64,000 nt of DNA from an uncultured Candidatus Saccharibacteria bacterium (GTDB lineage Bacteria > Patescibacteriota > Minisyncoccia > Phycocordibacterales > UBA918). Shown here piece after piece: positions 5,271 to 48,039 of the stretch (within the stretch, counting starts at the first letter, position 1; every line of letters begins with the position of its first letter). The DNA lies in assembly GCA_964350985.1 (NCBI GenBank), contig CAYGLK010000002.1, forward strand, positions 229,406 to 293,405, written 5' to 3'. The notes below the pieces were generated by a model. The model made no database searches and was not told the origin of the DNA. It saw nothing but the letters and a program-made list of their open reading frames with translations. A program made the position numbers and the translations under genes.

Positions 5271-5272
5271 TT

Positions 5273-26713: not shown

Positions 26714-26745
26714 GTTTGTGGGACTCTTCTTATGGATGAGTTTCC
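26700..26745. repeat. attR-like junction (element arm AAGTTTGTGGGACTCTTCTTAT / comM side GGATGAG)
   Basis: The comM frame resumes at ATG 26732 ('MDEFPEF'). TTTGTGGGAC is the inverse of GTCCCACAAA at the left junction. Confidence 0.6.
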
Positions 26746-27328
26746 TGAATTTGACAGACGCTCTCTTGATGCCCTACGTCAACCACTGGAGGACAGGATG
26801 GTAAGTATTTCTCGCATTCAAGGTACCGCACTTTTCCCAGCTGATTTTATTTTAGTAGCAGCTATGAATCCTTATCGTGGGCAAGAAGATGGTACGACCA
26901 ATCTCGCTCGGGCTATGCAAGAAACTTACAAAGGAAAAATATCAGGACCGATTTTAGACAGAATTGATTTGTGGATTGAGGTACCTCATGTTGATTATGA
27001 AACTCTCACAAACCTCAACCGAAAAAGTGACGAGACGAGGTATGCTCGTGACCAGATTAAAAAAGCCCGCAGCTTACAAGAAGAGAGACTCCGAGATAGA
27101 GGAGTTGTTACTAATGCCGAGATGACTAGTCGCGACATCGACTACTGCATTAAACTGAGTCCGGAAGTATCTGAGCTACTAAAAATGTCGTCAGAAAAAT
27201 TAAACCTCTCTCCCCGCAGTTACCATAGACTAATTAAAGTCGCCCGCACTATTGCTGACCTAGATGACCAGGAAGAGATCGAAACAAAACATGTACTTGA
27301 GGCCCTTCAGTATAGAATAACAATATAA
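26732..27328 (+). pseudogene. comM: comM/yifB C-terminal part (Mg-chelatase ChlI C-terminal domain)
   Basis: 'DEFPEFDRRSLDALRQPLED...VAAMNP' continues the ComM sequence exactly where the N-fragment stops. Confidence 0.85.
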
Positions 27329-32425: not shown

Positions 32426-32503
32426 AGTTTGAAAGTGGTTTTAAGAGGTAAACTATGAACACTCTTAGGGAAAAAGGGCTTTCATTACTGCTATAATAAA
32501 CAC

Positions 32504-33394
32504 ATGGTAAACCAATCTAATTCAAAGGTTGTTGGCGCTTTTGTGGTGGGCTTGAGCCTCGTTACTGGCGCTTATGTTTTGAATAATTTTGGTCAAAACT
32601 ATTCTCCAACAACCACTCCTCAATCAATCACTACAGTTGAGGCTCCGCTTCGTATGCCTATCCCGGTTTCTGATACCAATAATGACGGCATCGAAGATTG
32701 GCAAGAGGAGTTTGTTAGCACTAATATAGTAAATGTTCAAAACGGATCAGATTCCTACCTAGCACCCGAGACTTTGACAGGAAAGATAGGAGTTTCTTTT
32801 ATTGAGGAAATTATCCTCGCTAAAGGATATGAAGAATTTGGTCCTTCAACTGAAGAAGTTATCGATAGTACTGTTAATACTATTATTAAATCGACCGAGG
32901 ATAAAATTTATGATATTAAAGAAATAACTATCATAAAAACTACCGACAGCGGGAGCGTCCGCGCATATGCTAATGCCCATGCTAGCGCTCTAATTGATAA
33001 CAACGTTCCTGATCTTCGTGACCCCCTTGTAATTTTAAAGGAAGTTGTTGATGGAAAAACTGATCCTGGATTAAAGGAACTTGAAACGCTGAGCGAAGTC
33101 TATCGTAAAATCCGTGACTCAGTTTTAAGAATCCCAGTTCCTTCTACTCTAGCCAAAGAACACTTGGACTTAATTAATATTTACAACGCTCTACATGAAG
33201 ATCTGAAGGGAATGGGCAAGTCTGGAGAAGATCCTCTTGTGGCCTTAGTCCGACTTAGACGTTATGAGGATGACACCTTGGCTTTAGGTTTGGCTTTGCA
33301 AAATTTAGGCAGAACCCTAAAAAAATATAATTTTGAATATACCGAAAGTGATCCTTCTGTTGTATTTCTAGCTTTCATCCTAAATTCACAATAA
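32504..33394 (+). CDS. hypothetical exported protein (first gene of T4SS-containing operon)
   Basis: N-terminal anchor 'VVGAFVVGLSLVTGAYVL'. No known domain. Confidence 0.45.
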   Translation: MVNQSNSKVVGAFVVGLSLVTGAYVLNNFGQNYSPTTTPQSITTVEAPLRMPIPVSDTNNDGIEDWQEEFVSTNIVNVQNGSDSYLAPETLTGKIGVSFIEEIILAKGYEEFGPSTEEVIDSTVNTIIKSTEDKIYDIKEITIIKTTDSGSVRAYANAHASALIDNNVPDLRDPLVILKEVVDGKTDPGLKELETLSEVYRKIRDSVLRIPVPSTLAKEHLDLINIYNALHEDLKGMGKSGEDPLVALVRLRRYEDDTLALGLALQNLGRTLKKYNFEYTESDPSVVFLAFILNSQ

Positions 33395-33398
33395 TTTT

Positions 33399-34841
33399 AT
33401 GAGCTTACTACACTACCTAACTCAACGATTCCTAATTTCTGGCTTTATTTTAAGTTTTGTTTTTGTCTCACTTTACACACCACTGCCGTCTAATACATTG
33501 AATACTGCCGAAGCAGCATATCCGGTCTTTGATGCTGCTGCAGAAATACAACTAACTACTGCCAATACTAACTTAGTAACGACAAATGCCGCTTTAAAGG
33601 CTGGTTTTGGTTCTTTAATAAAACTCGAAACAAGTGAAGAATCTAAAAGTCTGTTTGCTGACGGTATTGCTTGGGCTTTAGCAAAACAGGTGGTGTCAGC
33701 CATTACGTCTAGTATTGTTAGTTGGATTAATTCCGGCTTTCAAGGCAAACCCGTTTTTGTTCAGGATCTAGGTGGATTTTTAACTGGTATTGCCGATGAT
33801 ACTGCCGGTCTTTACCTACAAGAATTGGGTGGGCCTTTATCATTCCTTTGTTCTCCATTTAAGCTCGACATCCAAATTGCTCTCTCTTTCGCCTACGCCA
33901 GAGAGAGGAATGGACATCTTTATGGCTCTTGTACTTTAACTGGAGCCTTGTCCAACCTTGAAAGCTTTATTGATGGTGATTTTGCTAGTGGAGGCTGGGA
34001 TGCTTGGTTTAGTGTTACTTCCCAGCCGGAGCTCTACACTCCTTATGGAAGTATGATGGCAGCTAAAGAACAGCTGGATAGACGGGTTAGTGAAAAAACT
34101 GGCGAAGAAAGAAATCTTTTAAGTTTTGGCTCCGGTTTCTTATCAACAAAAAAATGTACCTCCCCGGATGATTCTCAGGGAGGAGGACCACCTGATTGTA
34201 GAATTGTTACCCCTGGCCAGACAATCAGCGAATCTTTAAGCTTTCAACTTTCAACAGGACAAAGGTCACTAATTAGTGCTGATGAAATTGATGAAATCAT
34301 TGGTGCTTTGATTGGAGCCTTAGCCCAGAAGGCTATAACAGAAGGTTTGAGTTCTCTTAGTGGTGGAAGTGGATCAGGCAGTGGTAGCAGCGCAGGCAGT
34401 TCTTACTTAACTGAATTACAAAGTGAGGCAGCTAACTTTGATCGCTTCCGAGAGCAAGTTTTAGACAGCATTGCTCTACTGGAACTATATATTGATGAAG
34501 CATTATTTTATAAACCTCTTCTCCTAGATTTTGCTAATAATTCAAACAATAATTCACGTCGTCGGGAGGCTGCCTTAGCTGAGGTCAATGAAATTGATTT
34601 GGACTTAATTGAAGCGGACGAGACAATTGAGGAGTTAGAAAGGCTACTAGATCAAATTGAGTTTGGACTGACACCAGAATCCGCTGGCTCAATATCTAGA
34701 ATCTATATGTCTCTTCCGCTACATTCACAAAATAGTATAGATTTTGCTATAGACGCATGGGAATCTTTAATTGCTCCAGATAATAATGACAGCGGCTCTG
34801 GCGGATCATCAAACTCAACCTCAACCTTCCCAGGAGGTTAA
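33399..34841 (+). CDS. hypothetical membrane-anchored protein with Gly/Ser linker
   Basis: N-terminal TM, 'SGGSGSGSGSSAGSS' linker and an acidic C-terminus. Confidence 0.45.
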   Translation: MSLLHYLTQRFLISGFILSFVFVSLYTPLPSNTLNTAEAAYPVFDAAAEIQLTTANTNLVTTNAALKAGFGSLIKLETSEESKSLFADGIAWALAKQVVSAITSSIVSWINSGFQGKPVFVQDLGGFLTGIADDTAGLYLQELGGPLSFLCSPFKLDIQIALSFAYARERNGHLYGSCTLTGALSNLESFIDGDFASGGWDAWFSVTSQPELYTPYGSMMAAKEQLDRRVSEKTGEERNLLSFGSGFLSTKKCTSPDDSQGGGPPDCRIVTPGQTISESLSFQLSTGQRSLISADEIDEIIGALIGALAQKAITEGLSSLSGGSGSGSGSSAGSSYLTELQSEAANFDRFREQVLDSIALLELYIDEALFYKPLLLDFANNSNNNSRRREAALAEVNEIDLDLIEADETIEELERLLDQIEFGLTPESAGSISRIYMSLPLHSQNSIDFAIDAWESLIAPDNNDSGSGGSSNSTSTFPGG

Positions 34842-34847
34842 TAATTC

Positions 34848-37025
34848 ATGAATTGGTTTAGACAAAACAAAAATAAAGTTCTCTCACTGTCTTTTTTGGT
34901 GATTATTTTTTCATTTTTACCTCAAGTTGCTGACGCCCAACTTGCTATTGTTAAAGAATATTACGTAAGCGTGGCTTGGACATTTGTTAATACCGTTTTT
35001 GGTTGGATGCTTTGGGCTGGGGGAGTCCTTATAAACTACAGTGTGACAACTTTTGTAGTAGGTTTTGGTTCTTTCTATGTAAACTCAGGAATAGGCGAAG
35101 CTGTCAATACATTATGGGGAAAGGTACGTGACATTTTTAACCTCACTTTTATCTTTGGGTTAGTCTACATTGGTTTTAAGATGATCTTAGACAGCAGCGA
35201 CAGTAGTGCCAAAAAAATGCTGGGATCTCTCTTAATCGCTGCGCTTTTGGTGAACTTTAGCCTTTTTATCACCAAGTCAGTAGTGGATTTTTCTAACATT
35301 GCCGCTAAGCAATTTGCGGAACCATTTCTGGTAGTCAACAATGCCGGCAAAGAAGAATATGAGATTTCAAGCAAATTCATGGAATTACTTGGCCTGACGA
35401 GTATCATTTCTTTTGAGTTTTTTGACGCTCCAGAGAAAGCTGGTTTTGGTTATGTCTTTGGCACAGCTTATCTTTATATTATTGGAGCCTTTGTTTTTGG
35501 CGCCGGGGGTATTTTGTTACTCATTCGTTTTATAGTACTGAATATTTATATGCTTTTGTCTCCTTTAATGTTTCTCGGGTTTGTTTTTCCGGGCTTAATG
35601 AGTATTTCCAAACAATACTGGACCGGCTTCCTAAAACGTGCTTTTTTTGCCCCCGCTTATCTTCTGATGATTTACTTTTCCGCTCAGATTCTGGCAAACT
35701 TAAGTCGTTTTGTTGGAGTTGATAATGATTACTCCGCTGCTTTTGTAGCGAGTAGTGACTTAGGTGCGACTGCAGCTGCTACTTTTGAAGGAACTATTGT
35801 TTATTTTATGATTATCTGCGGTTTTTTAATCGCTTCTTTAATTGTGGCCAATAAACTAGGTGTTCATGGTGCCAGTACAGCTATCTCACTTGGTAAAAAA
35901 GGTTCAGCCTGGGCCAGAAGAAAAACCATCACTAACGCTAGGGGTGCCGTTTTTGTGGGTGCCCGGGCAGGACTTGACGCTGCAGCCAAAGACAACGGAA
36001 AGCGTTACAGTAGTAAAACTAAAAATTTCCTTAGAGGAGGGACTAGGATGGCGGCCAGAAGTGCTACTCTACTTGGGGCTAGAGATGGACTAGACTCACT
36101 AGCTAAGCCGTATGACGAAAGTTCTGCTGATTGGAAGAAAAAAGTGGCGGGATTAAATCAACGTGACAAAGAAGCTCGCGATGAAGAAACAATTGCAGAG
36201 GGTCAACGCGGAGCAGATGAGCTTGCTGTTATTAGAGCAGCTCAAAAAGCCAAAACTTCAACTTCTGCACAAGACGCTAGACTACCAGACCTAGAGAAAG
36301 CTGAAGCAGCGATGTTGTCTGTTATTGCTGGGATGGCTACTAGTCAGCTAGAAAATATGTCAGCTAGTGACATAGCCAAGATCGCACCAAATCTTACCAG
36401 TTCACAAATCGAGAATGTCTTAAAGAGCGACAAGGTGGATCCTGCGATTAAATCAAAGCTTCTAAAGACTCGCATCGACGCTATTACTGGAAAAATTACG
36501 GCTACAAATGCTGCTGGTGTAAAAGTACTTCGCATCAAAGAATTAACTGCCCTTAGTACTGATGAAATCGAAACCTTGGGTGATGAGTGGATTAGGAAAA
36601 ACGCAGCATTATTATCAAATACACAAATGGAAGACCTGAAGAAGAGTAAGAAATTCACGGAAGGTCAAAAAAACAGCTACGCTTCTATTCGATCGACAAC
36701 ACACAAAAATTTGGTTGATTCTGGAACTACATCCGAAATAGCTGCACTATTTAGAAATAATGACGGAGTACCTTCTAAGGGAATAAAAGCTACTGACAGG
36801 AAACCTAAAGAAGTAGCTAATCTTGGGAAAGATGTTTTGACAAATGATAAGTCTCTTCCTTTCCTTACGGGCGGTATATTAAATGAAATTGCTAAAAATG
36901 AAACCCTATTGCAACCAGATCGTGCTGCTCTAAGAAAGAAAATCGAAGATACTTCATACTCTGGAGCAAACAAGACTGAATTACAGGAATACTTTAAATC
37001 TTCTCACGGACAAAGACACTGGTAA
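34848..37025 (+). CDS. polytopic membrane protein, VirB6/TrbL-like (PrgH/TcpH-like) with long hydrophilic C-terminal extension
   Basis: More than 6 predicted TM helices in the first ~330 aa, then a ~390-aa soluble tail. Sits in a T4SS context. Confidence 0.5.
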   Translation: MNWFRQNKNKVLSLSFLVIIFSFLPQVADAQLAIVKEYYVSVAWTFVNTVFGWMLWAGGVLINYSVTTFVVGFGSFYVNSGIGEAVNTLWGKVRDIFNLTFIFGLVYIGFKMILDSSDSSAKKMLGSLLIAALLVNFSLFITKSVVDFSNIAAKQFAEPFLVVNNAGKEEYEISSKFMELLGLTSIISFEFFDAPEKAGFGYVFGTAYLYIIGAFVFGAGGILLLIRFIVLNIYMLLSPLMFLGFVFPGLMSISKQYWTGFLKRAFFAPAYLLMIYFSAQILANLSRFVGVDNDYSAAFVASSDLGATAAATFEGTIVYFMIICGFLIASLIVANKLGVHGASTAISLGKKGSAWARRKTITNARGAVFVGARAGLDAAAKDNGKRYSSKTKNFLRGGTRMAARSATLLGARDGLDSLAKPYDESSADWKKKVAGLNQRDKEARDEETIAEGQRGADELAVIRAAQKAKTSTSAQDARLPDLEKAEAAMLSVIAGMATSQLENMSASDIAKIAPNLTSSQIENVLKSDKVDPAIKSKLLKTRIDAITGKITATNAAGVKVLRIKELTALSTDEIETLGDEWIRKNAALLSNTQMEDLKKSKKFTEGQKNSYASIRSTTHKNLVDSGTTSEIAALFRNNDGVPSKGIKATDRKPKEVANLGKDVLTNDKSLPFLTGGILNEIAKNETLLQPDRAALRKKIEDTSYSGANKTELQEYFKSSHGQRHW

Positions 37026-37028
37026 AAT

Positions 37029-37535
37029 ATGAAAATATCTAACGAACAATTTGATGAAGCTTACGAAAAAGCCACCCCTGCTCAGCAATACCTGTGCTCC
37101 TATTCAGGTGGTCAACTGCTAAGTATCGCAAATAAATATAATTTAAACGAAGAAGAATATAAAAATTTGGCCATAACTATTGGTGACGTGGTACTTGGTT
37201 TTTTTCCAAAAACCGAGCTACCTAACCTTTTGGTTAATGAAGTTGGTTTAAACGAAACGAACGCCTTTAAAATAACTGGAGAGTTAATGGATTTTTTCAA
37301 TCCCTTGACTGATCCAAGTTGGCAACCGCCCAAAAATAATACAGAAAATGATTTGGAGGAGGTTGGGCTGTCAGTCCAAGAAGAAATTGCTGAAGCTGAA
37401 GCTGCCTTAAAGTCACTACGAACCATGGCTGATGACGAACTAGCAGCAATAGACTCAGAAAAAGTACACCCTAGCCAGCAAGCGGACCTACTCAACAAAG
37501 AAAGCGGCCCTTCTCCTCGTTGGGGGAGCGGGTAA
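37029..37535 (+). CDS. hypothetical protein
   Basis: 168 aa, acidic, no motif. Confidence 0.4.
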   Translation: MKISNEQFDEAYEKATPAQQYLCSYSGGQLLSIANKYNLNEEEYKNLAITIGDVVLGFFPKTELPNLLVNEVGLNETNAFKITGELMDFFNPLTDPSWQPPKNNTENDLEEVGLSVQEEIAEAEAALKSLRTMADDELAAIDSEKVHPSQQADLLNKESGPSPRWGSG

Positions 37536-37536
37536 T

Positions 37537-37570
37537 AAAAAAACGAAAGCCTATGCAGCTTTCGTTTTTT
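37537..37570 (+). terminator. Rho-independent terminator
   Basis: aaaaaaacgaaagc-ctatgca-gctttcgtttttt. Confidence 0.7.
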
Positions 37571-37620
37571 ATTCCACGTCAATTAACCCTGACTACTTCT
37601 CTAACGTGTATAATGAGTAG

Positions 37621-38040
37621 ATGCAATTTGAAGTACCTCAGTTTATTGAAATTGAAGACAAAATCTTTGGGCCATTGACTTGGAGGCAATTTCTTTATAT
37701 TGGCGGCGGTGTTGGTATGGGTGTGGTTTTATTTTTTACCACCAATTTTATAATTTTCCTAATCATTGGACTACCTTTGGCACTTTTGGCTGGAGCTTTG
37801 GCTTTTTACCCAGTTAATAATCGTCCTTTTTCCTACTTCCTCGAATCTTTAATTGGCTACTTTAGAAGAAAGAAACTCTACCTTTGGAGACAAAAAAAAG
37901 CGGAAGTACATAAATATAATTTTACCCCAAGTCAAATACCTCACCAAAACCCTCTAAATGTTAGTCATCAAGCATCCCAAAAAAATGTTGCCTCAATGGC
38001 TCGCCGTCTAGAATTAGAAGCTCTACAAAAAAAAGATTAA
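37621..38040 (+). CDS. PrgI/VirB3-like small T4SS membrane protein
   Basis: 'VPQFIEIEDKIFGPLTWRQFLYIGGG' followed by two TM helices, the typical PrgI-family arrangement upstream of VirB4. Confidence 0.55.
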   Translation: MQFEVPQFIEIEDKIFGPLTWRQFLYIGGGVGMGVVLFFTTNFIIFLIIGLPLALLAGALAFYPVNNRPFSYFLESLIGYFRRKKLYLWRQKKAEVHKYNFTPSQIPHQNPLNVSHQASQKNVASMARRLELEALQKKD

Positions 38041-38041
38041 C

Positions 38042-38677
38042 ATGCCAAAAGCTACTCCAGCCTCACAAGATTTTGTTACCATCAAAGACATTAAAGATGG
38101 TGTTGTTATTCTAAAAAGTGGCCAAATGTGTTCTGTTCTTTTAGCTTCTTCCATCAACTTTGCTCTTAAATCTAGTGACGAACAACAAGCGATCTTACAC
38201 AACTTTCAGAGTTTTTTAAACACTTTAGATTTCTCACTACAGATCTATATCCAATCAAGAAGGTTAAATATTGAGCCTTACTTGTCTCTTTTGGCCACTA
38301 GAGAAGACCAACAAGACAACGACCTGATGCGGATCCAACTCCGTGAATACATAGAATTTATTCGTAGCTTTACAGAAGAAGTAGATGTGATGAGTAAAAA
38401 CTTCTTTTTAGTAATCCCTTACACACCATCTCCAGTCAATCTCACTCGAGGAATCACAAATTTTTTTACACCTGGAAAACAAAAAGCCGCCCCGGCCGAC
38501 TTACAATTTGATGTCCAACGGATCCAACTAGAGCAACGTGTCGCCATTGTCGAACAGGGCTTATCCAGAGTGGGTGTAAGAACTATTAAGCTAAAAAATG
38601 AAGACTTAGTGGAGCTTTATTACCATATCTACAACCCAACTGACCCTACAGGTTCAGCTCCAATGGGTAATAATTAA
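38042..38677 (+). CDS. hypothetical T4SS-associated protein
   Basis: 211 aa. It is separated from virB4 by two consecutive in-frame TAA stops. Confidence 0.45.
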   Translation: MPKATPASQDFVTIKDIKDGVVILKSGQMCSVLLASSINFALKSSDEQQAILHNFQSFLNTLDFSLQIYIQSRRLNIEPYLSLLATREDQQDNDLMRIQLREYIEFIRSFTEEVDVMSKNFFLVIPYTPSPVNLTRGITNFFTPGKQKAAPADLQFDVQRIQLEQRVAIVEQGLSRVGVRTIKLKNEDLVELYYHIYNPTDPTGSAPMGNN

Positions 38678-38686
38678 TAAAAACAT

Positions 38687-40492
38687 ATGGGACTTTTTGA
38701 TTTTCTAAAACCACAACCACAAAATAACTTTGGTACATCAAACACAGACCTTGGTGATCACTTAATGACACTAACTGATGTTATTGCCCCCTCAGCAATC
38801 AACATCAGTCCCCGAAACATTAATATGAGCGGCATGAATGCCCGGGTGCTATATGCGGTGGCCTACCCAAGGTTTTTAAATGATAGTTGGATGGAGCCGG
38901 TTTTAAATCTTGAAAAAGAATTAGATGTTTCTATAGTCATTCACCCAATCGACACCTCAGAAACCTTAAAAAAATTCCAAAAAAAAGTGGCTGAAGTGCA
39001 AAGTCAGATCAACATCAAAGCTGAGCGCGGGGAAGTACGTGACCCACAACTAGAAGCAGCTTACAGAAACCTGGAAGATTTACGCGATAAGCTGCAACAG
39101 TCAGAAGAAAAGCTTTTTGACGTTGGTTTTTATATTACTCTTTATGGAGAAGACGATGCTGCTTTAAACAAAGCAGAGACTGACCTCAAGGGGATATTAG
39201 ATTCACGACTTATTTATCTAAAGCCGGCTTTGTTTCAACAAGAACAAGGTATCCAGAGTGTTTTACCTCTAGCAACAGACCAGCTCTTGGTACACAGTAA
39301 ATTTAATTCTTCACCACTATCCAGCTTTTTTCCCTTTACTTCTTTTGACCTTACCTCTGACAATGGAATCTTGTACGGTATTAATCGACACAACTCATCA
39401 CTAGTACTTTTGGATCGTTTTTCACTGACCAACTATAACTCAGTAACTTTTGCCACCTCAGGAGCTGGAAAATCTTATGCTCTAAAGCTCGAAATTCTTC
39501 GTTCACTGATGTTTGGGACTGAAGTGATTGTACTTGACCCAGAAAGGGAATACGAATACTTAGCTGAAGCTACGGGTGGTCGCTTTTTCAATATCTCTCT
39601 TTCTTCTGATCACCACATCAATCCTTTTGACCTACCGCCACCGCAGCCAGACGAAAGCCCTAAAGATATTCTTCGCAGTCATGTGATTGAGTTAATCGGC
39701 CTTTTCAGACTGATGCTTGGTGGACTGAGTCCGGAAGAAGAAACTGTACTTGACTTAGCTATTCAAGAAACTTACGCCTTAAAAGATATTACTGGGGACT
39801 CAGACTTTAGTGACCAAGAATCCCCGATGCTATCAGACTTTGAGATGGTTTTGGCTGGAATGGATGGAAGCTCATCTTTGATTGCCCGCTTACAAAAGTA
39901 TACCTCTGGTACCTGGTCTGGTTTTATGAACAAACCTACCAACGTCGACATCAATCAAAAGTTTGTGGTCTTTTCACTTAGAGACATGGAAGAAGAACTG
40001 AAGACAATTGCAATGTATATTATTACCAACTTTATTTGGGGCTCTGTTAGACGACGTATAGTGAAGCGCTTGCTCGTGATTGATGAAGCTTGGTGGATGA
40101 TGAAATCTGAAGACACTGCTTCTTTCTTGTTTAGTCTGGCTAAGCGTGGACGAAAGTATTACTTAGGTATTGCCACTATCACTCAGGATGTAGACGACTT
40201 CCTACGCTCTCCTTACGGAGTTCCGATGATCACCAACTCTTCTTTGCAGTTTTTGATGAAACAATCACCAACCGCTATTGATAACATCCAAAGAACTTTC
40301 AATCTTACTGATGAGGAGAAGTTCTTACTGCTTGAATCAGGAGTTGGGGAAGGAATTTTCTTTGCTGGACTTAAACATGTGGCAGTAAAAGTCATCGCTT
40401 CATACACAGAAGATCAGATCATCACCTCAGATCCTTCACAAATTCTCCAGATTAAAAAGGCTAGAGAGGAACTGCAAGCTTCACGTTCGTAG
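38687..40492 (+). CDS. VirB4/TraE/PrgJ-family T4SS ATPase
   Basis: N-terminal 'VIAPSAINISPRNINMSGMNARVLYAVAYPRFLNDS' block of the Gram-positive VirB4 type. Walker A 'TSGAGKSYA' and Walker B 'LLVIDEAWWMM'. Confidence 0.85.
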   Translation: MGLFDFLKPQPQNNFGTSNTDLGDHLMTLTDVIAPSAINISPRNINMSGMNARVLYAVAYPRFLNDSWMEPVLNLEKELDVSIVIHPIDTSETLKKFQKKVAEVQSQINIKAERGEVRDPQLEAAYRNLEDLRDKLQQSEEKLFDVGFYITLYGEDDAALNKAETDLKGILDSRLIYLKPALFQQEQGIQSVLPLATDQLLVHSKFNSSPLSSFFPFTSFDLTSDNGILYGINRHNSSLVLLDRFSLTNYNSVTFATSGAGKSYALKLEILRSLMFGTEVIVLDPEREYEYLAEATGGRFFNISLSSDHHINPFDLPPPQPDESPKDILRSHVIELIGLFRLMLGGLSPEEETVLDLAIQETYALKDITGDSDFSDQESPMLSDFEMVLAGMDGSSSLIARLQKYTSGTWSGFMNKPTNVDINQKFVVFSLRDMEEELKTIAMYIITNFIWGSVRRRIVKRLLVIDEAWWMMKSEDTASFLFSLAKRGRKYYLGIATITQDVDDFLRSPYGVPMITNSSLQFLMKQSPTAIDNIQRTFNLTDEEKFLLLESGVGEGIFFAGLKHVAVKVIASYTEDQIITSDPSQILQIKKAREELQASRS

Positions 40493-40500
40493 TATACTGA

Positions 40501-41640
40501 TTGGATATGGCTGCTCCAGCACCACAACCAAAAAATTCTAGAGACTATAGACGGTCCAGGGGGAGATCTAAGGAAACTCTTAGATCACGCTGGGGAGGGA
40601 AAGGTCAGCGTGAAAAAATAGGAATTAATGACGACTTCCAATATCTAGAGGATCAGGAATTGACACAAAATGCTTCTAGTGACCAGATTTTTAAGGATAA
40701 TTACCGAAAGCGAGGGATTCAGGCTGGGAACTTTAATTACCGAGCTGAACAAAATGCTGCAGCTAATGATTCTGACTCAAAAGAAACCCAAAATGAACCC
40801 TACGTTATTCCTCGATCTAGAGGAATAACACAAGTTCGACGTGAAGAAAGAAGAGTCAGTAATAATTCACCATATCCCCAAGCAACTGAATCATCACCAA
40901 ACCCGTCCGTGGACGAAGTTTTTAATGCATCTTACCAAAATCAAGGTATTCAAGCACAAGATTTAGCTAGTCCAATTAAAAAAGTCGTTGATAAAACCGG
41001 GTCAGATTATCAAACAAAATATCAATCTCGAGAAAATAACGAAAGTAAAAGAAATTTTCGGGCGAAAACAAATTTTCCTAAAATTAATGATGCCAAACTA
41101 CCTAGAGAAATACCTAAAAAACCTAAATTTAAAGCTAATAGTAAGGTCAAAAAAGCTTTGGCCAAAAGTAAGGCTTCGGCCGCTAGTACTAGTATTTTTG
41201 TGTGGTATGGAAACCTTTGGTTTTGGGTACAATTGCCAATTGTTATAGTTAGTATTGTCGGTCTTGCTCTAGCTACTGGAACAGAGTCAAATGCTATTGG
41301 ATTTTTAGACACAGTATCTAGACTTGGTATTTCAGGAGATGTCTTGGCTATAACTGAATTTTTTACTGGCAGAGATTTGAGTCTTGCTGGCGCTCTTGAA
41401 GCAACTGGATTAGGTTTATTTTTCCTTTGTTACATTACTACTTTAGCGATTGGTGCTATTGCTTTCATGGCTATGTATCTACAGTACACATTCAGTCTTA
41501 GCAACTGCCTTTCTGGGAACCGACAAAGCCTAAAAACAAACTCTCTTCTAATAGTTTTTTTAGGTTATCTTACTCCAGGACTTAATATTCTACCGTGGCT
41601 ATTTGTTTGGGTTATTGTTGTCTGGATGTACCCAGAATAA
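40501..41640 (+). CDS. hypothetical membrane protein with basic, disordered N-terminus and C-terminal 4 TM
   Basis: The motif '(N/S)Y(R/Q)xxGIQA' appears twice in the N-terminal half. The C-terminus is hydrophobic. Confidence 0.45.
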   Translation: MDMAAPAPQPKNSRDYRRSRGRSKETLRSRWGGKGQREKIGINDDFQYLEDQELTQNASSDQIFKDNYRKRGIQAGNFNYRAEQNAAANDSDSKETQNEPYVIPRSRGITQVRREERRVSNNSPYPQATESSPNPSVDEVFNASYQNQGIQAQDLASPIKKVVDKTGSDYQTKYQSRENNESKRNFRAKTNFPKINDAKLPREIPKKPKFKANSKVKKALAKSKASAASTSIFVWYGNLWFWVQLPIVIVSIVGLALATGTESNAIGFLDTVSRLGISGDVLAITEFFTGRDLSLAGALEATGLGLFFLCYITTLAIGAIAFMAMYLQYTFSLSNCLSGNRQSLKTNSLLIVFLGYLTPGLNILPWLFVWVIVVWMYPE

Positions 41641-41685
41641 TCATAAATCCGCTTTCTCTAAGAATTTATTTGTTATCATATAGTA

Positions 41686-42645
41686 GTGAAGTATATTTTC
41701 TTATTCTTAGCCCTAATATTAGTATCTCCGTTTACTGCTTTAGGTCAATTTGATGGTGGAATAATCCCCTCTGGTGCCACACTTGAATTAAATCCTCAAA
41801 ATCCGGCGCCAGACAGTCCTTTTTCTGTGACTATAAACGATTACTCCGTACCTGGACAAACTAGTTCGATTATCTGGCGCGTTGATGGTCAGGTTATTGT
41901 AGAGGCTGAGAACTCTCGCCGCATTGATTTGACCAGTAAAGGTTCTGGGGAAGCGACAGTGGTTGAAGCAACCCTAGGACGGAGCGGTGGAGGTAATATC
42001 GTAATAAAGCAGACAGTAACTCCTTTATACTTAGATGTAATCATCGAAGCTCAAACTCGTTCTCCTGGTTTTTATACGGGCAGAAGTTTGCCTAGTGTCG
42101 GTAGCACTATTAACGCTACCGCTATACTTAGCAGCAACTTAGCGCCGAGCGACTTAGTATATTTATGGGAAGCCGGTGATAAAGTAATTGACGGTGGGCC
42201 ACTTCGAGGGAGAAATCGTATTTCGGCCACTGTCCCTTCTGGGCAAGTCTTCTTAATTAAAGTTGAAGTAAGAAAAACAAACGGAGATTTTGTTGCCTCT
42301 AGATTGGTTCAAGTTCGGACTTTTTCTCCTGAGATTTATTTCTATGAAAAGAGCTCTCTCTATGGAGTAAATAATAAGCCCATTAGTAGCTTTGGTCTGA
42401 TTGGGGCTAGCGCCACGATTGTTGCTGAACCATACAACCTGGACATTAAGACTTTCAATTCCCCGCCACTCTTAGTGTGGGAAGTTGACGGAAAAGAAAC
42501 TTCTACCACTTTAGGTAACCCTTACGAGATTACCTTAGCGAGACCTGAAGGAGTAGCCTCTGGAGCCTCAGCTATAAACTTCCATGTCCGTAACTTAACT
42601 AATCTACTTCAGGGGGCAAAAGGTAGCTTCCGAATTAATTTTTAA
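41686..42645 (+). CDS. hypothetical secreted protein
   Basis: Signal peptide 'MKYIFLFLALILVSPFTALG'. Confidence 0.45.
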   Translation: MKYIFLFLALILVSPFTALGQFDGGIIPSGATLELNPQNPAPDSPFSVTINDYSVPGQTSSIIWRVDGQVIVEAENSRRIDLTSKGSGEATVVEATLGRSGGGNIVIKQTVTPLYLDVIIEAQTRSPGFYTGRSLPSVGSTINATAILSSNLAPSDLVYLWEAGDKVIDGGPLRGRNRISATVPSGQVFLIKVEVRKTNGDFVASRLVQVRTFSPEIYFYEKSSLYGVNNKPISSFGLIGASATIVAEPYNLDIKTFNSPPLLVWEVDGKETSTTLGNPYEITLARPEGVASGASAINFHVRNLTNLLQGAKGSFRINF

Positions 42646-42646
42646 A

Positions 42647-43828
42647 ATGAAAAAACCTCTTCTCATAATTATTGCAGCTTCAATTGGTCTAATAGTAATT
42701 TTGATCTGGATTTACTTGATGTTTTTTAACAAAAACGTCACTCCAGAAAATATTTTCACCGGCTTCCTAAACGGGGAAGAAGACACTTCATTAGACACAA
42801 CCCCGCCGCCACAAATCATAGACAACAATCAAGTAAACCTCGAGCGACAGGCTCTTCGACAGTTAACCACAAGGCCGGTTGCGTCGTTTCGAGAGGTAAA
42901 ACAGTCAGCGAGCAGCAGCCCAGAACTCTATTATGTAGAAATGGGCACTGGTCATATTTACAGTATCAATACTGAAACTGGTGAAGAAAAACGATTGTCT
43001 GGTAGCACAGTTGCTCAAGCTAATGCGGCTGCTATTTCAACTAACGGAGACTACTTTGCCATTTCTTCTTACAATAATGATGGTAGCAAACGCTTAACAG
43101 TGGGTTGGCTTGATAGGGAAAACAATTTTCTAGAGGAACGTCTAGTTGAGGCAGTGCATGACTTCTCTATCGGAATAAGTGATGAACTCCTCTACACTAC
43201 AGCTGGCAATAACGGCCTTTTGGCATATAGCTACAACCTTGAGACAGCTGCTAAACAATTAATGTTCTCTCTACCCTTTTTTGAAGCTAAGATGCAGTGG
43301 GGAACAAGCTCTGCAGCTGCCCATTTTGTTTACCCAAAAAGCTCATTTGCTGCGACTGGTTTTTTATATGAAATTAAAAATGGAAAGTTAGTTCGTCTTC
43401 CACTTTCTGGTTACGGTTTTTCAGCTTTAACGACCAGTAAATACGTACTTTACACAAAACTACATGAAGAAAAACCAACCAGTTTCTTTTTTGATAGAGC
43501 TACTGGTATTTCTACACCTATTACAATAGATGTTCTACCAGAAAAGTGTTCCGCTATCGAAACACTTACAGTCTTTGTTTGTCCACGAGACAGGGCGACA
43601 CCACTACCATATGAAACTCCTGACGAGTGGTATAAGGGTAACCTAGGTTTTAAAGATGCTGTTTGGCAACTCAATCCAGCCAACGTTCCTGGAGGGATCA
43701 TTTTTGACACTTTAGACACTGGTCGAGAAATTGATATTATTAAACTTGATGATAATTTGGATCTTACTGCCTTTTTCTTTACCAACAAAAATGATAATAC
43801 CCTCTGGATGTATGAATTATATGAATAA
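42647..43828 (+). CDS. hypothetical membrane-anchored periplasmic protein
   Basis: N-terminal TM. The remainder is rich in beta-strand-like repeats and may form a propeller. Confidence 0.45.
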   Translation: MKKPLLIIIAASIGLIVILIWIYLMFFNKNVTPENIFTGFLNGEEDTSLDTTPPPQIIDNNQVNLERQALRQLTTRPVASFREVKQSASSSPELYYVEMGTGHIYSINTETGEEKRLSGSTVAQANAAAISTNGDYFAISSYNNDGSKRLTVGWLDRENNFLEERLVEAVHDFSIGISDELLYTTAGNNGLLAYSYNLETAAKQLMFSLPFFEAKMQWGTSSAAAHFVYPKSSFAATGFLYEIKNGKLVRLPLSGYGFSALTTSKYVLYTKLHEEKPTSFFFDRATGISTPITIDVLPEKCSAIETLTVFVCPRDRATPLPYETPDEWYKGNLGFKDAVWQLNPANVPGGIIFDTLDTGREIDIIKLDDNLDLTAFFFTNKNDNTLWMYELYE

Positions 43829-44750
43829 AACAATTTTTTCGATATTTGTTTTAGGTTTGGTTTTCATTCCTTTTATTTCCTGGGCACAAACTGCTCCAGA
43901 AACAGTTACTGAGTGTATAGGAGAGGGAGATGATGCTTTTTACTTAAATTTACGTGAATGTTCAAGGGAAATTGAAATCTGTAAATTAGGTCTTGGAACT
44001 AATCCAATTTTAGATACTTCAGTGACCCCAAATACTGTGACTTGTACTCAATCTGGTTTAGTGCCGACAAACCCTACTCCTGTAGACCCCTACAGTAATG
44101 GAAAATTTGTACCTCTAGTAGGAATTCCTGGAGTTAATGCAGACGCAAATATTAATGATTACATTAATGCACTTTACGCACTATCAATTAGTCTAGCTGC
44201 TCTTCTGGCCGTGATTAAGATCATCATTGCTGGAGTAAAGTGGATGTTATCTGATATGGTTACTACCATATCAGACGCTAAGAAAGATATTCAAGGTGCT
44301 CTACTCGGACTTTTAATTGTGATTTCAGCCGTAGTGGTTCTGAACTTTATTAACCCACAACTGACAGAAACTGATGTATTTCTAGCTCCAGTGGGACAAA
44401 GTGCTAATAATACTAGTGAAACAAATACCACCCCGGAACAACCAACTCTTTTTTGCTCTTCAGCTACGACCTGTGCAGAACTTAATGCCAGATGTCGGGT
44501 GGTTGGTGGCAATCCCACAACTCTTCCTTCTATTGAAGAAGGGGATGGAGGAACGGTCACTTGCGACAAACCCTTTGGTCCACCATTACCACCTCGGACA
44601 ACTATTGTTTTCCCTTGTAACTATACTGGTGATGACCCTTGTTTGGGTGCTATATCTGCTTGCGATAGAAAGGCCGGAAGTACCTATGTTACAAGATTGG
44701 TGGTTGAAGAAGATAAACTAGAGCTGATTTGTAGTTTTCCTGCGGAGTAA
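43812..44750 (+). CDS. secreted Cys-rich protein with VirB2/TrbC-pilin-like double hydrophobic hairpin
   Basis: Signal peptide 'MNKTIFSIFVLGLVFIPFISWAQT'. The start is approximate because the ORF track begins at 43731, overlapping the previous gene. The central segment 'ALYALSISLAALLAVIKIIIAGVKWML...ALLGLLIVISAVVVLNFI' is hydrophobic. The N-terminal domain has 6 Cys and the C-terminal domain has 9. Confidence 0.45.
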   Translation: MNYMNKTIFSIFVLGLVFIPFISWAQTAPETVTECIGEGDDAFYLNLRECSREIEICKLGLGTNPILDTSVTPNTVTCTQSGLVPTNPTPVDPYSNGKFVPLVGIPGVNADANINDYINALYALSISLAALLAVIKIIIAGVKWMLSDMVTTISDAKKDIQGALLGLLIVISAVVVLNFINPQLTETDVFLAPVGQSANNTSETNTTPEQPTLFCSSATTCAELNARCRVVGGNPTTLPSIEEGDGGTVTCDKPFGPPLPPRTTIVFPCNYTGDDPCLGAISACDRKAGSTYVTRLVVEEDKLELICSFPAE

Positions 44751-44758
44751 CGAAACTT

Positions 44759-44796
44759 AAAAAACAGGCACTTCCGGAAGGAAGTGCCTGTTTTTT
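44759..44796. terminator. bidirectional terminator (operon end / yidC)
   Basis: aaaaaacaggcacttccggaaggaagtgcctgtttttt. Confidence 0.75.
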
Positions 44797-44814
44797 AAGT
44801 TTTAAATTTTACTC

Positions 44815-45559: not shown

Positions 45560-45886
45560 TTAATTCAGCGCCCGTCCAATTTCCTTAGTCATATTTTCAG
45601 TAAAAAGCTTTTTACTTAACTTAGAAACCTCTGGTTTTGCAATAATAATATAGACCCCTTTTAACTCTTTCTCTACTCGTAAGATATCCAAGATCCCATA
45701 AATACGCCTACGAATAGAGTTTCTTTTAACCGCACTTTTAGACACTTTCTTACCCACAACAACAGACCCAAACAAGGTTGGGGCAGGGTAGTTAATTATA
45801 GTGGCGTAAGTTCCATTGATTCTTTTACCTTTTTTAAAGTAGTTAGAGAAACTAGAACGGTCTAAACGTTCGGTCTTTTTAAGCAT
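45560..45886 (-). CDS. rnpA: ribonuclease P protein component
   Basis: 108 aa, basic, 'LKKTERLDRSSFSNYFKKGKR'. Confidence 0.85.
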   Translation of the reverse strand: MLKKTERLDRSSFSNYFKKGKRINGTYATIINYPAPTLFGSVVVGKKVSKSAVKRNSIRRRIYGILDILRVEKELKGVYIIIAKPEVSKLSKKLFTENMTKEIGRALN

Positions 45887-45940
45887 AACTTATGTATTAT
45901 ACTGCATCCTGCTCTTCGAAAAGAGATACAAAAAAAGCTC

Positions 45941-46090
45941 TTATCGAGCTTTTTTCACCGTTAGTTGTGCGCGTCCTTTCCTTCGTCTTGCTTGCAATAC
46001 TTTTGATCCAGCAGTTGTAGCACTCCGCACCAAAAAGCCGTGCGTAGTGGCTCGTTTTTGTTTACTTGGCTGGTAGGTTCTTTTACTCAT
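45941..46090 (-). CDS. rpmH: 50S ribosomal protein L34
   Basis: Manual translation of the minus strand gives [49 protein letters not shown]. It is below the ORF-track size cutoff. Confidence 0.85.
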
Positions 46091-46339
46091 ATGGCAACTA
46101 CTATACATGAACCCTGTAATAATTCAATAGGGGACCAGGTCTAGGATGACCCAAACCTCAAGCTGATAGTGGGGGTCCTTCCTTAGACAAGACCTCAAGA
46201 TAGTTTATTCACAGTTTATACACAGTTGCATTTTTTGGAGAAGAAAAGAGGGTACCAATAGTAGGATTTTTACGAAATATTTTACAGCTGAGTTTATGAG
46301 AGTATAATGCTATTTACTGTTTAGATTTTTTGAATCGTT
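46091..46339. promoter_or_regulatory. rpmH-dnaA intergenic region with DnaA-box-like 9-mers (origin region, with the dnaA-dnaN spacer)
   Basis: TTATTCACA (46205..46213) and TTATACACA (46216..46224) lie 2 bp apart, each one mismatch from TTATCCACA. They sit between the divergent rpmH and dnaA genes. Confidence 0.5.
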
Positions 46340-47725
46340 ATGAACCCAATATCACATCCTTCTTCAACAAATAGTATCGTTCGCACAGAACATATTGACG
46401 TTAAAAAGTTGTGGGATGACGCCTTGGTAAAAATCGAACTTTCAATTACTCCAGCCAACTTCAAAACCTGGTTCCGAGACACTTATATTTTGACTCTTGA
46501 AGACGGAACCGCTACCTTAGCTGTACCTAGTGTTTTTGTTCGTGACTGGCTACAAGACAAATTCCAATCTATGATCCTAAAGACACTAAGAGACCTTTCT
46601 CCTTATATACGGAGTGTTGAATATGAGGTTGTCCAAAGAAACGACCGTCGCAGCGAAACAAATAAAACTCAAACCGTAAATGCAGCACTGCCACTAGAGG
46701 AATACTACATCAATAAAAACGATAATCTTAATCCAAAGTATTCTTTTGAGAACTTTGTTATCGGACCCTATAACGCCCTAGCACACGCCGCTGCAAAAAC
46801 CGTTAGTGAGAAGCCTGGAATCGCTTATAACCCACTATTTATTTACGGAAAGACTGGTCACGGAAAGACTCACTTGATCCAGGCAGTAGGGAACCAAATT
46901 AAAAAAACTGGAAAGAAAGTATTTTATGTTACCAGTGAACGTTTTGCAGTTGATTACTTCAACTCCCTCCAGAGCGGTAGTGCTAACAGCTTTAAAGATA
47001 AGTACCGACAGTACGATGTCTTGATCATGGACGATGTTCAGTTTTTGGCCAGTAAAGAAAAAACTCAAGAGGAACTTTTCCATCTTTTTAATGCTTTGCA
47101 TGACACCAATAAACAAATTGTTTTCTCCAGTGATATTCATCCAGCTCTTCTCTCTGGTCTAGAAGAAAGACTACAGTCTAGATTTGCTCAAGGAATGATT
47201 GTTGATATTCCAGCCCCTGACCTAGAGTCTAGAGCCGCTATCCTGAAAGCAAAAGCAGCTCAAAACAGTATTGTTTTAGCTGATGATGTAGTAGACCACC
47301 TGGCTCAAACAATCGAAGGTAACATTCGCGAACTGGAAGGGGCTTTAAACACCATTATGTGTCAGTCTCAACTCCTGGGACGTACTTTGGTACTAGACGA
47401 AGTTAAAACTATTATCAAAAACAGCTCTCGACCTCGTAAAACTCTAGCTGTTTCAGATGTAGTAGATAAGGTGGCTCGTTACTTTGATATTGACCAAGCT
47501 AGTATCTATGAAAAAACCAGGCGTAAGGAAATTGTCCGCCCGAGACAGATCATTATGTATATCTTAAGAGAGGACTTCGCTGTTTCATATCCTTCAATTG
47601 GTAAAAAACTAGGGGGAAGAGATCATACGACAGTAATTCACTCGTGTGAGAAGATAAAAAACGAACTAAAGTCAAACACCGAGCTTGAGGAAGAGATCAC
47701 CCAGATAAGAATGCTCCTAAAATAA
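46340..47725 (+). CDS. dnaA: chromosomal replication initiator DnaA
   Basis: AAA+ 'GKTGHGKTHL' and the C-terminal DNA-binding domain 'IGKKLGGRDHTTVIHSCEKI'. Confidence 0.95.
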   Translation: MNPISHPSSTNSIVRTEHIDVKKLWDDALVKIELSITPANFKTWFRDTYILTLEDGTATLAVPSVFVRDWLQDKFQSMILKTLRDLSPYIRSVEYEVVQRNDRRSETNKTQTVNAALPLEEYYINKNDNLNPKYSFENFVIGPYNALAHAAAKTVSEKPGIAYNPLFIYGKTGHGKTHLIQAVGNQIKKTGKKVFYVTSERFAVDYFNSLQSGSANSFKDKYRQYDVLIMDDVQFLASKEKTQEELFHLFNALHDTNKQIVFSSDIHPALLSGLEERLQSRFAQGMIVDIPAPDLESRAAILKAKAAQNSIVLADDVVDHLAQTIEGNIRELEGALNTIMCQSQLLGRTLVLDEVKTIIKNSSRPRKTLAVSDVVDKVARYFDIDQASIYEKTRRKEIVRPRQIIMYILREDFAVSYPSIGKKLGGRDHTTVIHSCEKIKNELKSNTELEEEITQIRMLLK

Positions 47726-47748
47726 AACACCTTCGGGTGTTTTATTTT
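47724..47748 (+). terminator. terminator after dnaA
   Basis: aaaacacc-ttcg-ggtgtttt followed by a T-run. Confidence 0.65.
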
Positions 47749-48039
47749 AACCAAACCAAGGAATATCTAAGCTGGGGTAAATTATGCTAAACTATGTTTA
47801 CAACAAAGAAAAAACTGTTGGTAAGTGTAAAATTTTTGCTAATTTTTATAGAGACCCTGAGGATAAAAAACAGAAGAAAATTAAGATTGGTCACTTGTCC
47901 CCGAGTTGTTAGCGACTAAACCCAACCAACCAACAGGTAGCTGTTAATTAAAGTACTCAAACAAACCAACTAATACAACATACTATTTAGATATGCACAC
48001 TTCCACAACCCTAATAGTAGAGAGTAAAATAGTTTAAAT

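Follow-up and report, generated by a model that had tools for sequence, protein, structure and literature searches.

We analysed a 64,000-nucleotide (nt) stretch of contig CAYGLK010000002.1 (assembly GCA_964350985.1), here called the window, and focused on a cluster of genes for a type IV secretion system (T4SS) at 32504-44750. All coordinates are window positions. The list of open reading frames (ORFs) contains 11 co-directional plus-strand ORFs over this span, numbered o1 to o11 in order, and agrees exactly with the eleven-gene cluster described in the original prediction (Table 1). The gaps between successive genes, from o1 to o11, are 4, 6, 3, 85, 1, 9, 8, 45, 1 and -17 nt. Spacers of 1-10 nt had been predicted, and this was borne out at eight of the ten junctions, the exceptions being the 85-nt and 45-nt gaps. 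The last ORF was listed from a TTG start at 43731 (43731-44750, 339 amino acids (aa)). Its start is most likely the ATG at 43812 or 43821, judging from the sequence, which gives a protein of about 312 aa. From the ATG, o11 begins with a typical signal peptide (MNKTIFSIFVLGLVFIPFISWAQT) and overlaps o10 by 8 or 17 nt. We collected relatives in a species scan with one genome per species. At least 557 genomes encode an o7 relative, and the best 80 were kept for comparison (L001-L080).

The motor of the system is encoded by o7, a VirB4 ATPase. The protein matched NCBIfam conju_CD1110 at 5.9e-109, with 365.4 bits against a cut-off of 325, and Pfam P-loop_TraG at 7.9e-25; P-loop_TraG, AAA_10 and DUF87 were all over their cut-offs. 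Profile comparison with PDB returned Thermoanaerobacter VirB4 (4ag5, 5.9e-39) and TrwK (3e-6). Both Walker motifs, A (SGAGKS) and B (LLVIDE), are preserved, and the 'APSAI' string mentioned in the prediction of a VirB4 is found at residue 34. A look-up of the exact o7 sequence returned nothing. The VirB4 assignment therefore passes the curated cut-offs of hidden Markov model (HMM) searches as well as the structural comparison. We also detected a weak and partial match of o7 to the model of the archaeal DNA-import ATPase CedB (6.1e-9).

The gene two positions 5' of VirB4, o5, encodes a small membrane protein that had been called PrgI-like. It matched Pfam PrgI (PF12666) above the cut-off (9.4e-11, 42.5 bits, cut-off 27). 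In a targeted comparison, the o5 orthologue profile matched the PrgI-family protein of a Clostridium perfringens plasmid (4.7e-7). The gene between o5 and VirB4 had been described as an unknown of 211 aa. This description did not survive the profile searches, as o6 is TrsD/TraC-like, with NCBIfam matches to VirB4_plasma (positions 104-233, 5.9e-11), TrsD (7.3e-7) and conju_CD1110 (positions 8-117) and a precomputed TraC-like match (PF26593). In the targeted comparison, the o6 orthologue profile covers residues 36-191 of the 783-aa VirB4 of the C. perfringens plasmid and the o7 profile covers residues 202-755. By this collinear alignment to one plasmid protein, o6 and o7 make up a VirB4 split into two genes, one for the detached N-terminal domain and one for the motor.

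Hydropathy analysis of o3 revealed seven peaks between aa 11 and 334, the first of which is probably a signal or anchor, followed by a hydrophilic C-terminal tail of ~390 aa. The o3 protein itself had no direct Pfam match. Nine of its 44 orthologues matched Pfam TrbL/VirB6 (best 2e-8), and a protein identical to o3 carries a precomputed weak TrbL_3 match. By transitivity from these relatives, o3 is assigned as VirB6-like, in line with the polytopic VirB6-like protein with a long soluble tail that had been predicted.

The pilin of the system is o11, a VirB2/TrbC-like protein. It consists of a signal peptide, a Cys-rich N-terminal insertion, a two-helix hydrophobic core (aa 113-180) and a Cys-rich C-terminal extension. 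Its own match to Pfam T4SS_pilin (PF18895) is weak (7.4e-4); 42 of the 44 orthologues match this family (best 2.2e-11), and seven match TrbC/VirB2 (PF04956). Across the orthologues from L001-L080, the core keeps a constant length of ~85 aa, while C-terminal extensions of anywhere between 7 and 353 aa occur (median 162). The number of cysteines in the extension is usually even, with a median of 6. In the window protein, the Cys-containing N-terminal insertion spans ~80 aa and separates the signal peptide from the core. Profile searches of o3 and o11 against PDB returned nothing meaningful (coiled-coil or EF-hand-like noise, E >= 0.01). Searching the window with orthologue profiles recovered no further pilin or VirB6 paralogue, so o11 is the sole pilin. 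C-terminal fusions are displayed on F-pili. By analogy with these fusions, the C-terminal domain of o11 would decorate the exterior of the fibre. The extension is a possible surface or host-specificity domain, and its place outside the fibre would make it a candidate host-recognition module.

The other six genes encode lineage-specific partners, of which o4 is cytoplasmic and o1, o2, o8, o9 and o10 are membrane-anchored or exported. The surrounding genes had been described as encoding exported or anchored proteins with no known domains. The description holds for o1, o2, o4 and o8, which have no Pfam match, and it fails for o9, which carries immunoglobulin (Ig)-like repeats, for o10, which is a TolB-like propeller, and for the pilin o11. 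The o9 protein has a signal peptide and three tandem repeats. Its orthologue profile matched the Ig-like domains of phage T4 Hoc (8.7e-6), and invariant Trp residues recur at 64, 161 and 265, a spacing of ~100 aa. The o10 protein is held by a transmembrane (TM) anchor at aa 5-23, and its orthologue profile matched TolB propellers in 11 chains (4.7e-6 to 2.6e-5).

The first gene of the cluster, o1, encodes an N-terminal membrane anchor (aa 9-27) and a Ca-loop-like motif, DxDxDGxxDWxE. An AlphaFold2 (AF2) model of the protein is an all-helical extracytoplasmic bundle (predicted local distance difference test (pLDDT) 82.7). No Pfam or NCBIfam match was found for o1, the PDB profile search gave nothing meaningful, and the model had no Foldseek match in PDB with E below 0.5. 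Among the matches listed, at least 85 homologues had E<=1e-4 (weakest 2e-48), all without Pfam domains. We considered o1 as the missing VirB8 and rejected it. The topology fits, but the AF2 model, a confident one, is all-alpha and matches no NTF2 fold.

The product of o2 belongs to a large family, with 6,074 clusters at 50% identity at E<=1e-3 and 3,731 at 1e-30. It is laid out as a signal or anchor, a conserved Cys-containing domain, a Gly/Ser linker and a C-terminal helical hairpin. The conserved domain contains the motifs WINSGFxGxPxFV, FLCSPF, TPG and ADEINEI. We found no Pfam, NCBIfam or PDB match for o2, and a look-up of its exact sequence yielded only a 37.7-kb Logan contig from run ERR3534985. 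The conserved domain is modelled with low confidence by AF2 (pLDDT 64.5), and a Foldseek search with this model gave nothing beyond long-helix noise.

The acidic o4 protein combines a helical N-domain of ~90 aa with a disordered Pro-rich tail and has no TM segment. Direct similarity identified o4 in 10 loci. Profile iteration assigned 62 of the 72 ORFs in the slot between VirB6 and PrgI to this family, which was found in about 60 of 63 loci; the family is fast-evolving but conserved in position. Most members end in DPYRE, within the motif DPYRE(P)I, and those of the window's clade end in PRWG. This C-terminal motif may act as a peptide that docks on the motor or the VirB6 tail. Pfam scans of the o4 family and the o8 family gave no match. 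The o8 protein has a basic, low-complexity N-terminal half and about three or four TM segments in its C-terminal half. Its slot is the least conserved of the cluster, being occupied in 48 of 73 loci, with direct sequence similarity in 12-15. A pilin-like identity of o8 was ruled out with the pilin profile. Profile iteration increased its matches from 13 to 46; we do not trust this as homology because low-complexity, TM-rich proteins were involved.

We then considered how the cluster may be transcribed. A generic promoter scan remained at background level (26 found and 26.9 expected) and a generic terminator scan missed an internal hairpin, so we read the junctions directly and folded them. A TGCTATAAT box lies 8 nt 5' of o1. 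In the 85-nt gap between o4 and o5, a terminator-like hairpin is followed by a TGTATAAT box 7 nt before the o5 ATG. Both boxes are extended -10 boxes, and neither o1 nor o5 has a Shine-Dalgarno sequence, which suggests that their transcripts are leaderless or near-leaderless. None of 200 shuffles folded as well as the internal hairpin. The TGTATAAT box also precedes prgI in the relatives L002, L005, L010, L013, L015 and L019. The hairpin was looked for in the relatives and is not generally conserved, unlike the -10 box in close relatives. We interpret the hairpin and the TGTATAAT box together as a probable internal transcription boundary or attenuator. The original prediction had called the eleven genes an operon. 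The cluster is certain, but the hairpin and box between o4 and o5 make a single operon doubtful, and, judging from the sequence, two or three leaderless-like transcription units, probably with internal promoters, appear more likely. A bidirectional terminator, formed by a perfect 20-bp hairpin, lies between o11 and yidC, which is convergent, and marks the 3' end of the cluster.

The best 80 loci revealed a conserved arrangement. VirB4 is 67-89% identical across them, and the gene order is UvrD-KsgA-o1-o2-VirB6-o4-PrgI-TrsD-VirB4-(o8)-o9-o10-pilin-YidC-RnpA-DnaA-DnaN, in a constant orientation, although o10 and the pilin are locally swapped in some loci. Presence was counted with tblastn, and many absences are contig ends. 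VirB4 was found in all 80 loci, TrsD in 79, PrgI in 77 and VirB6 in 63. Other cluster genes were found in 69-73 (o9), 64-66 (o10), 58 (o2), 57 (pilin) and 37-43 (o1) loci, and the flanking YidC, DnaA and KsgA in 64, 60 and 48. Median identity to the orthologues is 70% for VirB4, 52% for TrsD and 48% for PrgI, and it falls to 25-36% for o1, o2, VirB6, o9, o10 and the pilin. These values are evidence that the core is under purifying selection while the surface changes rapidly.

The genomes of the best 80 loci are named Paceibacteria, Paceibacterota, Kaiserbacteria, Nomurabacteria, Parcubacteria or Patescibacteria. The exception is one third-party assembly set, whose records bear the generic label 'uncultured Candidatus Saccharibacteria'. 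A host cell from the Candidate Phyla Radiation (CPR), similar to Saccharibacteria, had been proposed. The CPR part of this proposal stands; by its best VirB4 matches, the host is assigned to Paceibacteria (Parcubacteria) and not to Saccharibacteria.

To describe what the locus lacks, we scanned with Pfam the window ORFs that lie outside the larger called genes, taking all those with 100 aa or more and one with 98 aa. None of them matched the relaxase, VirD4/type IV coupling protein (T4CP) or VirB11 families, as had been predicted, and none matched the VirB7/VirB9/VirB10 families of the outer-membrane core. The absence of VirD4 holds for the 64-kb window. We considered the PilB/GspE-type ATPase ~11 kb from the T4SS as a VirB11 and rejected it. 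It is the only T2SSE-family ATPase in the window, and its MshEN N-domain and T2SSE architecture are those of a type IV pilus ATPase. On the opposite strand, 3.4 kb 5' of the cluster, lies a gene for a peptidase that combines two LysM domains with an M23 domain. The available text of a survey of Patescibacteria (PMC12102498) describes VirB1 homologues with LysM and M23 domains, and an association of VirB1 with virB4 in Paceibacteria. It also describes VirB8 as almost confined to the class ABY1.

The cluster is embedded in housekeeping genes. PAP2, the LysM-M23 peptidase, UvrD/PcrA and KsgA lie on its 5' side, and YidC, RnpA, rpmH, DnaA-box-like sequences, DnaA and DnaN lie on its 3' side. The rpmH gene was unannotated, and the DnaA-box-like sequences are TTATTCACA and TTATACACA. 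The end of the cluster is ~1.5 kb from this replication-origin neighbourhood. PBP1, TyrRS, RuvC, YebC, RuvB and the PilB-type ATPase follow beyond DnaN.

Mobile DNA in the window is confined to a 13,072-bp insertion in comM (Mg-chelatase/YifB family). It cuts the gene exactly into two halves that join at Pfam Mg_chelatase positions ~112-115, has a GC content of 0.368 (0.399 for comparison) and ends ~5 kb before the T4SS cluster. Its cargo includes DUF6119, a large serine recombinase, a PrimPol+AAA_25 helicase and several ORFs without assignment. It further includes an HTH-D12 methyltransferase, a second D12 methyltransferase and an AlwI-type endonuclease. From this content, the insertion looks like an integrated mobile element with a restriction-modification system and no transfer genes. 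A full-length LOOT RNA (RF03000) sits in the insertion's gap between the leftward and rightward gene blocks. Elsewhere in the window we observed two tandem M14 zinc carboxypeptidase genes. We also observed a PNPase gene followed by a 552-aa ORF without a Pfam match and then a DksA/TraR-type zinc-finger protein (to 12715).

Table 1. Features of the T4SS cluster and its surroundings, in window positions.
Feature	Position	Strand	Length (aa)	Basis or detail
o1, lineage-specific T4SS partner	32504-33394	+	296	anchor and all-alpha model
o2, large uncharacterised family	33399-34841	+	480	motifs, clustering
o3, extended VirB6/TrbL-like polytopic membrane protein	34848-37025	+	725	hydropathy and orthologues
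o4, acidic cytoplasmic protein	37029-37535	+	168	hydropathy, profile iteration
o5, PrgI/VirB3-like small membrane protein	37621-38040	+	139	Pfam PrgI
o6, TrsD/TraC-like	38042-38677	+	211	NCBIfam and profile alignment
o7, VirB4 ATPase, middle and C-terminal P-loop domains	38687-40492	+	601	HMM, PDB, motifs
o8, low-complexity TM protein	40501-41640	+	379	hydropathy
o9, exported, signal peptide and three tandem Ig-like repeats	41686-42645	+	319	profile
o10, N-terminally anchored extracytoplasmic TolB-like beta-propeller	42647-43828	+	393	profile
o11, VirB2/TrbC-like T4SS pilin	43812-44750	+	~312	Pfam, orthologues
Region with TGCTATAAT box before o1	32480-32503			
Terminator-like hairpin after o4	37538-37570	+		RNA fold -14.3 kcal/mol, z = -5.6
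Region with TGTATAAT box before o5	37600-37620			
Bidirectional terminator hairpin between o11 and yidC	44756-44799			-37.2 kcal/mol, z = -9.7
M14 zinc carboxypeptidase genes, two in tandem	4338-6160			
XerC/D-like tyrosine recombinase	6211-7134			
PNPase	8495-10624			
ORF downstream of PNPase	10677-12335		552	
comM, N-half	12718-13659			
Large serine recombinase in comM insertion	16838-18613			
LOOT RNA (RF03000)	22717-22832	-		70 bits, gathering score 46.4, E = 4e-11
comM, C-half	26732-27328			
LysM x2 and M23 peptidase	28138-29109	-		
Replication-origin neighbourhood	45560-48040			
rpmH	about 45958-46092	-		
DnaA-box-like sequences	about 46205-46225			
PilB/GspE-type ATPase	55817-57544	-		MshEN and T2SSE

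We compared the locus with described systems. Southlakia epibionticum has an 'apparent T4SS' (SEML1_0006-0019) that is essential for epibiotic growth (Wang et al. 2023, Cell, PMC10633639). That system has a Gram-positive-like composition and a pilin array, no coupling protein or relaxase was recognised in it, and protein export or an alternative role was proposed (PMC10633639). The survey mentioned above (Quinonero-Coronel et al. 2025, Microb Genom 11:001409, PMC12102498), in its available text, reports VirB4 in 2,417 of 3,035 Patescibacteria genomes, almost always in one monophyletic clade nested in MPF-FATA. TrsD is described there as the commonest companion, with PrgI/VirB3, VirB6 and VirB2-like pilins near virB4, and VirB8 and VirB1 as seldom detected. 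A VirB2-like pilin near virB4 is described as unusual among monoderm T4SSs. According to the same text, relaxases occur in only 103 of the 3,035 genomes, VirD4/T4CP homologues occur in most genomes and are usually far from virB4, and in Paceibacteria the neighbours of virB4 are dnaA, dnaN, rnpA and ksgA. A 2025 review refers to these systems as 'the most exciting newcomers', stresses their pilins and gives their function as unknown (PMC12857230). A 2024 perspective calls their role 'completely unknown' and floats nucleotide uptake (PMC11665869). Most recently, a 2026 preprint reported that a cultivated member takes up host RNA and forms host-penetrating tubular structures 'that may be T4SS pili' (10.64898/2026.06.21.733656).

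The closest match to the window is the Patescibacteria-clade T4SS as described in the available text of PMC12102498. Both have TrsD beside VirB4, PrgI/VirB3, VirB6 and a VirB2-like pilin. Both lack a nearby relaxase or T4CP and an outer-membrane core, and they have the dnaA/dnaN/rnpA/ksgA context in common. There is no essential difference from the system in that text, and the window is one more instance of it, possibly from among its 3,035 genomes. The accessory folds (three Ig-like repeats, the TolB-like propeller and the helical o1), the split-VirB4 mapping and the Cys-rich pilin extension do not appear in the available text of the survey.

With the T4SS of S. epibionticum ML1, the window has in common the core order VirB6-PrgI-TrsD-like-VirB4, an origin-proximal position (its low locus tags), VirB2-like pilins and the lack of a relaxase or T4CP in the cluster. 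S. epibionticum also encodes an Ig-like exported protein beside the cluster (SEML1_0005, PEGA), which resembles o9 in the window. On the S. epibionticum side, there are two extended proteins of the VirB6-like kind (998 and 1,088 aa), and the locus further encodes an NTF2/VirB8-like protein, a lysozyme, a 1,113-aa protein 3' of VirB4 and a divergent array of six short pilins. In the window, VirB6 is single, the cluster lacks any hydrolase or NTF2-like gene, the one pilin bears fused Cys-rich domains, and the o1, o2, o4 and o10 families are present.

Among plasmid systems, the MPF-FATA T4SS of the pGO1/pSK41 type (TrsC-TrsD-TrsE) also has a VirB3-like gene, a separate TrsD and then VirB4, in a monoderm architecture without VirB7/9/10. 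Plasmid systems of this type are mobile, with a relaxase, a T4CP, a VirB1-type hydrolase and VirB8-like proteins, and have no pilin. The original prediction had likened the gene order in the window to that of pCF10, Tn916 and pCW3. In that arrangement, a full-length VirB4 comes straight after PrgI, which is also the case in C. perfringens pSXP-169_2. The separate TrsD gene contradicts this likeness, since by HMM profile TrsD is confined to the pGO1 type among four MPF-FATA subclasses in the available text of PMC12102498.

The plasmid pSXP-169_2 (NZ_CP143494.1, CD1110/CD1115-type) encodes a member of the same VirB4 family, with 30.6% identity (2e-64). Its VirB4 is a single 783-aa protein with a PrgI-family gene directly 5' of it. 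MobC, a relaxase and VirD4 (CD1115) are encoded directly upstream and an SLT transglycosylase downstream, and the locus further carries a topoisomerase and a sortase. None of this set is present in the window. Helicobacter pylori ComB (DNA uptake), Sulfolobales Ced (DNA import) and Bordetella Ptl (toxin export) also are VirB4-driven apparatuses that were turned from conjugation to other uses and whose clusters encode neither a relaxase nor a coupling protein. Their likeness to the window is one of functional analogy only, with no orthology past VirB4 and generic VirB3/6/2 parts, and the diderm ComB and Ptl systems possess a VirB7/9/10 core, whereas the window cluster is of the monoderm type.

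We conclude that the cluster is the Patescibacteria T4SS already published in 2023 and 2025, origin-proximal and non-mobile, which almost all CPR/Patescibacteria possess; the finding had been correctly read and is not new. It is very probably a chromosomal, vertically inherited Patescibacteria-type T4SS of Paceibacteria, descended from MPF-FATA conjugation systems, with its link to DNA mobilisation lost. The earlier view that this is probably not a conjugation machine agrees with PMC10633639, PMC12857230 and the available text of PMC12102498. The literature points to a machine for contact-dependent macromolecule transfer that serves a host-dependent lifestyle, and not to conjugation. Several points weigh against this interpretation. 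A T4CP could be encoded elsewhere in the genome, and the placement of o7 in the Patescibacteria clade rests on identity contrasts between sequences. No VirB8-like (NTF2-fold) signal was found in the cluster ORFs with Pfam, NCBIfam or PDB profiles, and there is no VirB1-like hydrolase among the 11 cluster genes. Large fused domains might block polymerisation of o11, which would make it a minor or tip subunit or a membrane protein. In addition, essentiality is shown only for one Saccharimonadia species.

By analogy with T4SSs of solved structure, we propose how the machine would work. A VirB4 hexamer (o6 plus o7) would dock on VirB3/VirB6 at the cytoplasmic membrane and would drive extraction of the pilin and its polymerisation into a tube, with the substrate passing through VirB6. 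The exported Ig-like, propeller and helical proteins may provide a scaffold for crossing the wall and for host-cell contact, replacing VirB8/VirB1-type wall-spanning parts, while the Cys-rich pilin domain would be displayed on the exterior of the fibre. Transport could run in the direction of effector export or of import of host material such as nucleic acids.

A first alternative is that the cluster is part of a (decayed) integrative and conjugative element (ICE), with a relaxase, T4CP and integrase just outside it, and serves ordinary conjugation. The VirB4 family is otherwise annotated on conjugative plasmids (NCBIfam CD1110), and the window encodes two recombinases, the XerC/D-like enzyme and the large serine recombinase. 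However, the serine recombinase belongs to the separate, comM-bounded insertion, which we examined as an ICE carrying or mobilising the T4SS and rejected, as it is bounded by the comM halves, lies ~5 kb away and has no transfer genes. The T4SS block itself contains no integrase and no att-like boundary, and its GC content shows no shift (0.400 in the cluster and 0.399 in the remaining window). No relaxase or T4CP family was found in the scanned ORFs, whereas the true conjugative locus of this VirB4 family, on pSXP-169_2, has MobC-relaxase-VirD4, with nothing comparable in the window; the rarity of relaxases in Patescibacteria genomes in the available text of PMC12102498 argues in the same direction. 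Most of the best 80 species genomes keep the housekeeping flanks in conserved order (uvrD-ksgA; yidC-rnpA-rpmH-dnaA-dnaN), and plasmid VirB4s of the CD1110 family (Bacillota/Actinomycetota) are at most 35% identical to o7 in the best of 2,521 matches. Because of this conserved synteny and low plasmid identity, we consider an ICE, which the original prediction had named as the finding that would overturn it, to be extremely unlikely, and we regard the cluster as a vertically inherited, origin-proximal core locus of the class Paceibacteria.

Other alternatives accept such a core locus and differ in its function. The machine may be a dedicated uptake system for host nucleic acids (ComB- or Ced-like for DNA, or for RNA), with import rather than effector export as its primary role. 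This is possible, if unlikely. Like ComB, the cluster has no relaxase or T4CP, and o7 has the CedB match, but that match spans only the generic P-loop region and is far under the cut-off. Patescibacteria are without nucleotide synthesis, the T4SS was proposed as an alternative route, and in S. epibionticum ComEC-dependent competence is dispensable and the T4SS essential (PMC11665869). Host-RNA uptake and tubes were described in the preprint 10.64898/2026.06.21.733656, which leaves the uptake mechanism explicitly unresolved. PNPase is encoded in the window, but no nucleic-acid-binding domain was detected in the eleven cluster proteins with Pfam or NCBIfam, and the sequence gives no sign of transport direction. 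We regard it as very unlikely that the system is an adhesive or penetrating fibre for host attachment only, with no translocation channel. Such a fibre would fit a pilin with a hypervariable Cys-rich surface domain, Ig-like and propeller proteins, which are typical adhesion or scaffold modules, and the lack of a substrate-recruiting T4CP in cis. Against it, the cluster has kept the presumed channel subunit VirB6 as a conserved protein with a long cytoplasmic tail, and a type IV pilus ATPase for adhesion and motility is also encoded, so that a second, purely adhesive fibre is less needed. A more specific idea, which we hold to be quite unlikely, is a feeding tube in Paceibacteria in which the hypervariable, disulfide-rich C-terminal domain of the single pilin, exposed at the fibre tip or along its length, sets host specificity and VirB4/VirB6 import cytoplasmic macromolecules of the host, e.g. 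RNA, via the tube. If it were true, o1, o2, o4, o9 and o10 would be wall-spanning or gating parts of an import machine without a described counterpart.

The Patescibacteria T4SS, as which we read this cluster, belongs to a small group of machines whose essentiality for the CPR epibiotic lifestyle has been shown (Southlakia transposon sequencing). The window provides a clean, well-delimited example from Paceibacteria and no new kind of system. The additions made by our analyses are modest: they map the split VirB4, assign folds to o9 and o10, rule out o1 as a VirB8, recognise o4 as a conserved family with a C-terminal motif, show how large the o2 family is and describe the variable pilin extension. 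In most related genomes, each of the eleven genes is represented by a conserved family in its fixed position, with o8 as the weakest case. The surface parts (pilin extension, Ig repeats and propeller) evolve much faster than the motor. These observations offer concrete targets for complex structure prediction and for genetics in the few strains that can be cultivated.

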